Below, one piece after another: positions 13,445 to 15,934 of a stretch of 64,000 bases of DNA. The translations under genes and the position numbers were made by a program. Position 1 is the stretch's first letter. Every line of letters begins with the position of its first letter. Below the pieces are notes generated by a model. That model was given only the letters and a program-made list of their open reading frames with translations, ran no database searches and had not been told where the DNA came from. The DNA is from an uncultured Clostridia bacterium (lineage in GTDB: Bacteria; Bacillota; Clostridia; TANB77; CAG-465), in assembly GCA_949106495.1 (NCBI GenBank), contig CARYZD010000005.1:32945-96944 (forward strand). Direction: 5' to 3'.

Positions 13445-14521
13445 ATGATAACAACTAGTTTATGTATGATTGTAAAAAATGAGGAAAAAGTATTAGAAAG
13501 ATGCTTAAATTCAGCAAAAGATATTGTTGATGAAATAATTATAGTAGATACTGGTTCAACTGACAAAACTAAAGAAATAGCAAATAAATTTACAAGTAAA
13601 GTTTATGATTTTAAATGGATTGACGATTTTGCAGCTGCAAGAAATTATTCATTTTCAAAAGCTACTAAAGACTTTATTTTATGGTTAGATGCAGATGATG
13701 TAATTTTAGATGAAGACAAACAAAAATTTATAGATTTAAAGAATTCATTAAATTCATCTATAGATATTGTAATGATGAAATACAATGTTGGATTTGATGA
13801 AAATGGTAATGTAAATTTTTCATATTATAGAGAAAGACTAATAAAAAGAGAAAAAAACTATAAATGGGAAAGTCCAATACACGAAGTTATTGTTCCAAGT
13901 GGTAACTTATACTATTCAAATATTTGTATAACACATAAAAAAGAAGAAACTAAATACTCAAAAAGAAATCTTGAAATATTTGAAAAACTACTATCTAAAA
14001 ATATTGAGCTTGATGCAAGACAACTATATTATTATTCAAGAGAATTAATGTATAATTCTCAATATGAAAAAGCAATATCATATTTTAATATATTCTTAAA
14101 TAATAAGAACGCATGGATAGAAAACAAAATAAATGCATGTATAGATTTAAGTAATTGTTATAAAGAAATTGGAAATAATGAAATGGCCATCTCTTCCCTA
14201 TTTCGTTCTTTTGAATATGATACTCCTAGAGCTGAAATATGTACAAATATAGGAATATATTTTATGGAGAAAGAAAACTATGAACTTGCAATCTATTGGT
14301 TTAAACAAGCAACTAGAATAAAACCAAATTTACAAAGTGGTGCTTTTGTACAAATAGATTATTACAAATATATTCCATATCTTAATATTTGTGTTTGTTA
14401 TAATAGACTTGGAAAAGATAAAATTGCATGTAAATATAATGAAAAAGCTGGAAAATTTAAGCCAAACAGCATTGCATATAAAAATAATAAAGAATACTTT
14501 AAAAAAATAAAAATTTGTTAA
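13445..14521 (+). CDS. family 2 glycosyltransferase with C-terminal TPR repeats (spore-surface protein glycosylation type)
   Basis: N-terminal GT-A pattern (CMIVKNEE...IIIVDTGSTDKT...DADD). The C-terminal half looks like TPR-like repeats. Sits immediately upstream of a collagen-like protein gene. Confidence 0.75.
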   Translation: MITTSLCMIVKNEEKVLERCLNSAKDIVDEIIIVDTGSTDKTKEIANKFTSKVYDFKWIDDFAAARNYSFSKATKDFILWLDADDVILDEDKQKFIDLKNSLNSSIDIVMMKYNVGFDENGNVNFSYYRERLIKREKNYKWESPIHEVIVPSGNLYYSNICITHKKEETKYSKRNLEIFEKLLSKNIELDARQLYYYSRELMYNSQYEKAISYFNIFLNNKNAWIENKINACIDLSNCYKEIGNNEMAISSLFRSFEYDTPRAEICTNIGIYFMEKENYELAIYWFKQATRIKPNLQSGAFVQIDYYKYIPYLNICVCYNRLGKDKIACKYNEKAGKFKPNSIAYKNNKEYFKKIKIC

Positions 14522-14581
14522 CACTTCTTGTCCTATATACATATATTATATAGAGCAACATGCTCAAAAAGGAGTTTTTTT

Positions 14582-15934
14582 ATGAATAATTTTGACTTAA
14601 ACAATTCTAATAATTGTAATTGCAAGAATTGTAATTGCAATCATAGACCTGATTGTGACCATAGCACTATAGTTTGTACAAAATGTATAACTGGACCTAC
14701 TGGTGCTACAGGAGCTACAGGTGCTACTGGACCTACTGGTCCACAAGGAATCCAAGGATTACAAGGAGTTCAAGGACCTCAAGGAGCTACTGGTCCTCAA
14801 GGATTACAAGGTATCCAAGGAGCTACTGGTCCTCAAGGACCTGAAGGTATCCAAGGTGTAACTGGAGCTACTGGTGCTACGGGAGCTCAAGGACCACAAG
14901 GACCTCAAGGATTAATGGGAATTACAGGAGCAACTGGTGTTACAGGGCCAACTGGAGCTACTGGTGCTACTGGTGTTACTGGGCCTACTGGTACAGGAGC
15001 CACAGGACCTACTGGTGCTACAGGGGTTACTGGAGCAACTGGTATAACTGGGCCTACTGGAGCTACTGGCGCTACTGGAGTTACAGGACCTACTGGTACT
15101 GGTGTAACTGGAGCAACTGGTCCTACTGGAGCTACAGGAGTTACTGGACCTACAGGTGCTACTGGTACTGGAATTACTGGACCTACTGGTCCTACTGGCG
15201 TAACTGGAGTTACAGGACCTACTGGTCCTACTGGAGCTACTGGAGTTACTGGACCTACAGGTGCTACTGGAGTTACTGGAGCTACTGGGGTAACTGGACC
15301 TACTGGAGCTACTGGTACTGGAATTACTGGTCCTACTGGACCTACAGGTGCTACTGGAGCTACTGGAGCCACAGGGCCAACTGGAGCTACTGGTGCTACT
15401 GGTCCTGCAGGAACTACACCAATATCTGCTGCTGTTGTACCATTTGCTTCTGGAGAACCAGTTACTTTAACTACAAACAATGAAAATACTGAAGGTGTTC
15501 CAAGTTTCGTAGGTTTTGGAGGTTCTTCAGCTGGAAATCAATCTTTACAACCAACATTAGATATGGCTTTAATAGATAATCATGCTTTTTCTATACCACG
15601 TAATAGTATTATAGAAAGTTTAACAGCATTTTTCTCTACAACTATACCAACAGACTTAACAAATACTTTCGTAACAATTTCTGCAAGACTATATAAATCT
15701 GATACACCAGATAATAATTTTGAAGAAATACCAGGAACTTTAATTACCTTAACACCAAGTATTACAGGTCAAGTTCCTGTTAACACAGTAGTTAGAGGAA
15801 CTTTAAGTAACTTAAATATTCCTGTTACTACAGAAACAAGATTACTATTTGTTTTCTCTGCAAGATCTGAAGGAGAAAGATTCCAAAATAGTATTATTGG
15901 ATATGCTAGTGGCGGACTTGGATTAAGAGCTTAA
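14582..15934 (+). CDS. collagen-like exosporium glycoprotein (BclA-like): Cys-rich N-terminus, ~80 GXY triplets, C-terminal globular (C1q/TNF-like) domain
   Basis: RBS AAAGGAG then ATG at 14582. Long Gly-X-Thr/Pro repeat ([10 protein letters not shown]...). The C-terminal ~170-aa non-repetitive domain ends ...[11 protein letters not shown]. The ORF track starts at 14528, but the RBS supports 14582. Confidence 0.8.
14695..15410 (+). repeat. tandem 9-nt (GXY) collagen triplet repeat region inside the BclA-like gene
   Basis: Repeated ggacctact / ggagctact / ggtgttact units. This also creates a spurious antisense ORF at 14905..15480. Confidence 0.8.

Follow-up and report, generated by a model that had tools for sequence, protein, structure and literature searches.

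In Clostridioides difficile the protein glycosyltransferase SgtA is encoded directly upstream of bclA3. The enzyme is 358 amino acids (aa) long; its GT-A domain covers aa 1-260 and its tetratricopeptide repeats (TPRs) aa 262-358, and with UDP-N-acetylglucosamine (UDP-GlcNAc) and Mn2+ it puts beta-O-GlcNAc on Thr (and Ser) of BclA3 collagen-region peptides (PMC7157674). BclA3 itself has an N-terminal domain of ~46 aa, ~72 repeats and a C-terminal domain (CTD) of 14-15 kDa (PMC13288923). A similar arrangement is described here from a 64,000-nt stretch of DNA of an uncultured Clostridia bacterium (contig CARYZD010000005.1), referred to as the window; all coordinates are positions in this window. 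The interval 13445-15934 was found to be filled by two co-oriented open reading frames (ORFs) on the forward strand, a glycosyltransferase gene followed by a gene for a collagen-like protein (Table 1). We consider it likely that they form a two-gene sgtA-bclA3-type unit for a glycosylated collagen-like spore-surface filament. The locus is an ordinary member of the known sgtA-bclA3 / BclB-related class.

As in the bicistronic sgtA-bclA3 pair of C. difficile (CD3350-CD3349), the glycosyltransferase gene of the window lies directly upstream of the collagen gene, on the same strand and with no terminator in between. Its product has the same length as SgtA and the same layout of a GT-A domain followed by TPRs, as an earlier note made by a model from the sequence had already read it. 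Pfam assigned aa 5-140 to Glycos_transf_2 (E 1.2e-24) and aa 263-295 to TPR_2 (E 3.1e-07) and TPR_1, and residues L81, D82, A83, D84 and D85 of the DxD motif showed no variation among 13 aligned homologues. In a profile search the nearest solved relatives were Listeria GmaR (E 4.2e-38, over the glycosyltransferase domain) and the S-glycosyltransferase SunS (E 1.7e-21), the SunS-family NCBIfam match being sub-threshold. GmaR, which we take to be the flagellin O-GlcNAc transferase of Listeria, combines a GT-A domain with TPRs and acts on a protein substrate; unlike the window enzyme, the Listeria monocytogenes protein modifies flagellin, has an added anti-repressor role and is much longer.

The identical glycosyltransferase (100%) was present on 20 contigs read, and the family of enzymes that join a glycosyltransferase domain to TPRs (GT-TPR enzymes) is very large, with at least 7992 matches. 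Against PHROGs the enzyme matched phrog_13126 ('beta-1,4-glycosyltransferase') over its full length (E 1.3e-51). Its homologues in 63 phage records, jumbo phages such as PaBG among them, are distant, with an identity of at most 38% over most of the length; relatives of this protein glycosyltransferase are thus also carried by phages.

The mechanical ORF of the second gene begins at a TTG codon (14528). An ATG at 14582 lies 8 nt past an AGGAG sequence (14570-14574) and all homologues open with the same M-N-x-F-D N-terminus; the gene is therefore taken to start at this ATG and to encode 450 aa. The same 450-aa protein, without a single difference, is encoded on 11 contigs from several other samples. 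It has the same N-terminal, collagen and CTD plan as BclA3, with similar sizes (37 aa, 77 triplets and 174 aa).

The match to Pfam Collagen was far from chance (E 7.7e-33). The collagen region consists of 77 GXY triplets and four two-residue Gly-Thr ('GT') interruptions, with A 28, P 26, V 13, I 7 and L 3 at the X position and T 61 and Q 13 at the Y position. The number of triplets, given as about 80 and mostly G-P/A/V-T in the earlier note, is thus 77. The proximal part (to ~14920) is Gln-rich and the distal part GXT-rich, and Tandem Repeats Finder reported a period of 9 with 51.6 copies at 14951-15402. As in the C. difficile system, the triplets are GXT-rich, offering SgtA acceptor-type sites with their 61 Thr at Y. 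Unlike BclA3, the window protein has CxC repeats in its N-terminus and its four interruptions lie within a higher-order repeat of ~35 aa; the comEC/POR neighbourhood and the uncultured, Clostridiaceae-like host also differ from C. difficile. The interruptions (G1G) were considered as a hallmark of the family and rejected as such, since just 4 of 64 homologues have any, although among the 64 are many truncated or collapsed assemblies. They belong locally to the higher-order repeat of this allele. An antisense ORF at 14905-15480 (reverse strand, 191 aa, with a Pro/Val/Ala/Gly repeat) is a by-product of the collagen array and no gene.

The CTD directly follows the collagen region and runs to the last residue. 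It scored 136 bits against NCBIfam TIGR03721 ('exosporium glycoprotein BclB-related protein'), whose curated cutoff is 93.15, with ORF aa 301-466 aligned to model positions 3-168 of 169. A Pfam scan of the protein at E ≤ 0.01 returned Collagen only and no BclA_C (PF18573); membership of the latter family was rejected and the domain is therefore of the BclB/BclA3 type and not of the BclA type. A profile (A1) built from ten C-terminal domains retrieved 676 proteins from a word-indexed database, many of them named 'exosporium glycoprotein BclB-related protein', and among the matches was a partial C. difficile BclA3 (P0242; E 7.7e-54, 40% identity, 97% coverage). In an exhaustive HMMER scan of 1.84 billion representatives, 1194 clusters (50% identity) were found at E ≤ 1e-3, 847 of them at E ≤ 1e-10. 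The domain is almost always located at the extreme C-terminus, as in nearly all of the 150 best representatives. One protein of 2558 aa (P0281) has six separate stretches matching the profile, so the domain also exists as tandem arrays in a giant protein.

A sequence search of the CTD against the PDB gave only noise (best E 0.003, to an unrelated repeat protein) and was uninformative, so that a comparison of folds was needed. The predicted structure has a TNF/C1q-like jelly-roll fold, with scores of 9.6 for 4-1BB ligand, 8.3 for RANKL, 8.1 for ExsFA, 7.2 for C1qA, 7.1 for the C-terminal domain of F-BclA and 7.0 for Bacillus anthracis BclA (3twi). The CTD of C. difficile BclA3 is structurally nearest to B. 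anthracis BclB according to a phylogenomic paper (PMC13188886). The collagen-like, exosporium-type glycoprotein architecture proposed in the earlier note is upheld by the Collagen and TIGR03721 matches and by the homology with BclA3. Its description of a C1q/TNF-like BclA domain of ~170 aa holds for the fold, as modelled, and for the approximate length; the family is another one, since the profile search that it advised, for Collagen together with BclA_C, yielded Collagen and, in place of BclA_C, the BclB-related model.

With BclB of B. anthracis, and the TIGR03721 ('exospore_TM') family, the window protein shares the CTD family and its position at the extreme C-terminus after a collagen-like region. 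It differs from BclB in its Cys-rich N-terminus and in having no Bacillus-type exosporium-targeting leader, and the GT-TPR partner enzyme is a clostridial arrangement, unlike that of Bacillus BclB. The TNF/C1q-like jelly-roll knob is common to the CTD model and B. anthracis BclA (PF18573), but the window protein has neither BclA_C nor the Pro-rich leader that binds ExsFA/BxpB, and the glycosylation machinery is different; B. anthracis BclA carries rhamnose-anthrose oligosaccharides. Vertebrate C1q, adiponectin and collectins, and Bacillus L-BclA (an ENA tip fibrillum; PMC12357932), also combine a short Cys-containing N-terminus with a collagen stalk and a C-terminal globular trimer, and in all of them disulfides, between chains or for docking, are made by the cysteines of the N-terminus. 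They have no sequence relationship to the window protein outside the collagen repeats; this is an analogy, which prompts the proposal on anchoring given below, and no evidence of membership.

By analogy with SgtA and GmaR, the first gene product would be a cytoplasmic GT-A plus TPR protein glycosyltransferase, dependent on Mn2+ and the DxD motif and with UDP-GlcNAc as donor, which would put an O-linked sugar, probably GlcNAc, on Thr of the GXT triplets of the second gene product. The latter would trimerise. Its TNF/C1q-like CTDs would make the distal knob of a filament, the helix of 77 triplets would give a stalk with a length of several tens of nm (approximate, from the standard rise of the collagen helix) and the foot would be made by the short Cys-rich N-terminus. 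By sequence inspection, no signal peptide, LPXTG motif or transmembrane segment was found in the collagen-like protein, and because of this the protein is expected to be a late-sporulation product of the mother cell, deposited on the outermost layer of the spore as a filament of the 'hairy nap'.

To assess the spread of the pairing, the 80 top-ranking GT-TPR loci among 185,579 species genomes were compared, with identities of 45-79% to the window enzyme. They span Clostridia, Lachnospiraceae, Oscillospiraceae, Erysipelotrichaceae, Paenibacillus and Bacillaceae. A same-strand collagen-like ORF was present within 4 kb of the glycosyltransferase gene in at least 53 loci, and was directly adjacent in at least 49 (downstream in 37, upstream in 28 and on both sides in 16); these counts are lower bounds because several loci are cut by contig ends. 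A collagen protein with a BclB-type CTD occurred in 21 of the 80. In C. sporogenes, bclA/bclB-like genes are clustered with a glycosyltransferase and Cys-rich exosporium proteins (PMC7333573). The pairing, which the earlier note had called typical and which mirrors SgtA-BclA3, is a known and broadly conserved module of the Bacillota. A distant relative (L004, 8001-11374) shows another arrangement of the same parts, having in order a BclB-type collagen protein with a signal-peptide-like N-terminus, a BclA_C-type collagen protein, a GT-TPR enzyme and an Fe/Mn superoxide dismutase.

The N-terminal domain of 37 aa contains seven Cys (positions 12, 14, 17, 19, 25, 32 and 35) and two His, and its motifs are CxC, CxC and CxxC, with no CC. 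The N-termini of the syntenic orthologues are Cys-rich as well (MNFFDLNNTNHCPCNTNSTITCTKCIT, MGNFDCENNREKCNCDSSIIFCKKCVT and MNYFDCNKNNCDFDCRRRQDCEHNTIICTNCAV; also that of L006), and an expanded 'NNNC' / CN-repeat version is present in L007. Lachnospiraceae BclB-type proteins have a common 21-aa N-terminus such as MNQNNSCNYCQNQCHPPCCER, and in Thomasclavelia ramosa the N-terminus reads MKDCNYNGCIWCPCCRCRPPIIIRCPT. Of 55 members of the close family whose N-terminus is complete and 10 aa or longer, 47 had three or more Cys and 40 had a Cys at most five residues from the first Gly. The Cys segment of aa 11-27 that the earlier note had singled out is thus indeed present, while such N-termini are common in the family and not unusual. 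Three or more Cys were also counted in 42 of 84 more diverse representatives of 50%-identity clusters, the others having long globular N-termini or signal peptides. Among close relatives the number (4 to 9) and spacing of the Cys vary freely, except for the Cys near the start of the helix. The N-terminal domain of C. difficile BclA3 may be Cys-rich too, though a literature search for its peptide gave no match.

Many Lachnospiraceae loci (L020, L021, L039, L050 and others, at ~2600-3980) have the glycosyltransferase gene between two collagen-like genes. The upstream one encodes ~20-27 triplets and a C-terminal domain of ~136 aa, and in L020, L021, L039 and L050 its product has a long N-terminal region with repeated CPC/CEC motifs and up to 34 Cys.

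Alleles with an identical glycosyltransferase, N-terminal domain and CTD were compared between different metagenome assemblies. The 450-aa form has 77 triplets and four 'GT' interruptions (L086); shorter forms have 415 aa with 66 triplets and three interruptions (L087, L088), 380 aa with 55 triplets and two (L089), 342 aa with 43 triplets and one (L090, L091), and 307 aa with 31 triplets (P0001, interruptions not counted). The alleles step by blocks of ~35 aa (11 triplets and one 'GT') in the distal GXT-rich part, and the Gln-rich proximal part is unchanged. In L087-L095 many contigs with the locus end within the collagen repeats or 54-206 nt past the stop codon; the repeat, or the sequence just downstream, therefore regularly breaks short-read assemblies, which is a caveat for all length comparisons. 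Length polymorphism of the BclA collagen region is known. The strain-variable triplet number expected in the earlier note is thus matched by differences between assemblies, which may reflect true variation or repeat collapse, and since short-read assemblers can collapse repeats of ~105 nt and contigs break here, the evidence for polymorphism is suggestive and not conclusive. In one contig (L092, 4138-5079) the glycosyltransferase and the N-terminus are identical to those of the window and the collagen gene diverges past triplet 24 to another C-terminus (…GTAALNHPTFVG… ending AIYVDETIFLQ); possible explanations are a chimeric assembly, a frameshift and a recombinant allele.

The two genes are separated by a spacer of 60 nt without a terminator-like site, and the single such site in 13200-16200, a strong one at 15942-15971, follows the collagen gene. 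Within the spacer, the -10 element CATAnnnTA is kept in the orthologous loci (L001, L002, L006). The sequence AC-N17-CATATATTA in the spacer fits the sigma-K-type consensus; as the count of this pattern in the window is at chance level, it is a candidate promoter only, retained for its conserved -10 element. After this element, the GAGC...GCTC core of a small hairpin is conserved in four orthologous spacers, with folding energies of -5.6 kcal/mol in the window and -8 to -9.4 kcal/mol in the orthologues; its possible roles are those of a stabilising 5' stem-loop and of an operator. Both bclA3 and CD3350 of C. difficile are sigma-K-dependent (PMC3789822), and by this analogy the two-gene unit would be expressed late in the mother cell.

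The GC content of the window is very low (~0.18-0.28; ~24% for the bacterium) and climbs locally to 0.365 at 14001-16000 because of the Gly, Pro, Ala and Thr codons. Upstream neighbours of the unit are the genes for AddB, ScpB and a ClpC-like ATPase, and the ComEC gene and a gene with a weak BofC_C match lie upstream of the glycosyltransferase gene in divergent orientation. Downstream are a four-subunit pyruvate:ferredoxin oxidoreductase (POR), DAHP synthase, DinB, SMC, formate-tetrahydrofolate ligase, FtsH-like proteins, RNase R and others. The order ClpC-like, hypothetical, BofC-like and ComEC, then divergently the glycosyltransferase, the collagen gene and POR, was repeated in L001 and L002 (CTD identity 58-71%). 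The same order was found in L006, the closest GTDB genome, a metagenome-assembled genome named 'uncultured Clostridiaceae bacterium' with a glycosyltransferase 79% identical to that of the window and a BclB-type collagen protein of ~75 triplets. The part from comEC to POR, with the two genes in between, is kept in L001, L002, L006 and L086. Further downstream, two adjacent paralogous proteins with AAA and Peptidase_M41 domains (FtsH-like) are encoded on the reverse strand at 33427-35136 and 35988-38006; their N-termini are alike and soluble-looking (MSDFEFIFE… and MNEYVDFNVSREV…), and the first has a partial M41 match only.

Table 1. Positions of the two genes, their domains and signals, and of two further genes in the window
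Feature	Position	Strand	Basis
sgtA-like gene, GT2 (GT-A) enzyme of 358 aa with C-terminal TPRs	13445-14521	+	Pfam, solved relatives, SgtA description
DxD motif L-D-A-D-D (metal/nucleotide-sugar binding, GT-A domain)	13685-13699	+	sequence; 13-sequence alignment
Best-scoring TPR, aa 263-295	14231-14329	+	Pfam TPR_2 and TPR_1
Candidate sigma-K-type (mother-cell) promoter, AC-N17-CATATATTA	14521-14548 (-10 at 14540-14548)	+	pattern match
Small hairpin GAGCA-ACA-TGCTC in presumed 5' leader, before ribosome binding site AGGAG (14570-14574)	14553-14565	+	conservation, folding
bclA3/bclB-like gene, collagen-like exosporium-type protein of 450 aa (stop included)	14582-15934	+	domain matches, sequence parse
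N-terminal domain, 37 aa, Asn- and Cys-rich	14582-14692	+	sequence; orthologue N-termini
Cys-rich segment of 17 aa, aa 11-27	14612-14662	+	sequence
C-T-K-C just before the first Gly	14675-14686	+	sequence
Collagen-like region, aa 38-276	14693-15409	+	sequence parse; Pfam Collagen; Tandem Repeats Finder
Length-variable distal collagen part	14990-15409	+	allele comparison
C-terminal globular domain, 174 aa, BclB-related (TIGR03721)	15410-15931	+	NCBIfam; predicted TNF/C1q-like jelly roll
Intrinsic terminator-like hairpin, 13 pairs and T tract, end of two-gene unit	15942-15981	+	only such site in 13200-16200
BofC_C-domain protein	10566-11165	-	weak Pfam match
SpoVB-like flippase	56998-58563	-	TIGR02900, 218 bits, sub-cutoff

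Several points weigh against the assignment to a spore-surface filament. The match of the enzyme to SgtA is one of architecture, length, gene order and published description. The ability of the host to sporulate is only hinted at, by two genes in the window, those for the SpoVB-like flippase, which is under the equivalog cutoff of 372 bits for TIGR02900, and for the weak BofC_C protein. The sigma-K-like pattern was found 13 times in the window, which is not above the 10.8 ± 3.6 expected from shuffles. The cysteines have a putative role, and their CxC clusters look like metal-binding motifs as well. Signal peptides occur in some members of the BclB-CTD family (P0015, P0310, P0352), and the CTD alone is therefore no proof of location on the spore.

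These signal peptides would also fit a vegetative cell-surface or secreted collagen-like adhesin (Scl/Lcl-like), unrelated to spores and glycosylated by the adjoining enzyme, as would the sub-threshold NCBIfam matches to Lcl and SclA/SclB and a host whose ability to sporulate is only hinted at. The matches are, however, confined to the collagen repeats (aa 52-213) and reach ~100 bits against cutoffs of 325-500, the sequence itself has none of the secretion or anchoring signals looked for, and its CTD passes the exosporium BclB model, so that an adhesin appears quite improbable. Somewhat better placed, though still improbable, is a role in an endospore appendage (ENA-like pilus), as its tip fibrillum or anchor, with the Cys-rich N-terminus docking by disulfides onto Cys-bearing pilus subunits. 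The L-BclA of Bacillus has an N-terminal connector with a CC motif, and a second collagen-like protein of Bacillus, which has five Cys in its N-terminus and lacks an exosporium leader, is a candidate for the S-ENA ruffle protein (PMC12357932); the window protein is likewise Cys-rich at its N-terminus and without a BclA-type exosporium leader. Against this, its N-terminus has CxC and CxxC in place of CC, no Ena or DUF4183 Pfam match was found among the window ORFs scanned (not all ORFs were scanned), and BclA3, the closest characterised homologue, makes exosporium hairs (PMC13288923). That the protein is a collagen-like tail fibre of a prophage remnant, the case that the earlier note had named as a refutation, has a negligible probability. 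In the PHROG tail-fibre matches of the full-length protein, almost all best-matching stretches fall within the collagen repeats (aa 27-318). With the CTD alone, neither the PHROGs nor a tblastn search of 50,697 phage genomes gave a match; the scanned neighbourhood of the locus yielded no phage gene, and the neighbours are housekeeping genes (ClpC-like, ComEC, POR, DAHP synthase, DinB, SMC) in conserved synteny. A phage origin was rejected on the CTD searches and this chromosomal, syntenic context.

The assignment to an sgtA-bclA3-type spore filament leaves a separate choice for the N-terminal domain. The BclA proteins of C. difficile are held on the spore by their N-terminal domain (PMC13288923), and high-mass BclA3 complexes need the Cys-rich CdeC and CdeM, which contain NPC and NGNN...C repeats (PMC6101409). 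Clostridia have no ExsF homologue, the attachment of BclA to the CsxA lattice 'is not known', and mother cells do build Cys-rich lattices that are cross-linked by disulfides (PMC7333573). The collagen-like tip fibrillae of Bacillus are joined to ENA pili via Cys-bearing N-terminal connectors (PMC12357932). Most likely the N-terminal cysteines of the window protein would form disulfides, between the three chains of the trimer, between the filament and a Cys-rich basal layer, or both. Going further on the analogy with the connectors of ENA pili, we propose tentatively, as a possibility more doubtful than not, that the Asn/Cys-rich N-terminus, in which a Cys two to five residues ahead of the first Gly is nearly invariant, could be a general clostridial disulfide connector, which would staple the trimer and plug into lattices of the CsxA/CdeC/CdeM type without an ExsFA/BxpB adaptor. 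A remoter variant is that some of these cysteines might be S-glycosylated, since the enzyme is related to SunS-type S-glycosyltransferases. It is unlikely that the Cys/His cluster is instead a metal-binding module (metallothionein- or zinc-ribbon-like), an alternative that concerns the function of the N-terminal domain only: the CxC, CxC and CxxC spacing with two His in 37 aa would suit it and the reducing cytoplasm of the mother cell disfavours disulfides, but the free variation in Cys count and spacing among close relatives is untypical of a defined metal site, and the disulfide-linked lattices mentioned above do arise in mother cells (PMC7333573).

The locus itself adds little beyond placing a probable spore-hair module of the sgtA-bclA3 type, in a syntenic position, in an uncultured, very low-GC gut or environmental relative of Clostridium. 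In C. difficile, the module has been studied as a host-entry factor and vaccine antigen. Of somewhat wider value is the survey, as the recurrent pairing and the frequency of Cys-rich N-termini in the close family and among the more diverse representatives bear on how nap filaments are attached to clostridial exosporia. Part of this interest lies in the family-wide Cys-rich N-terminal module, which may serve as a covalent anchor.

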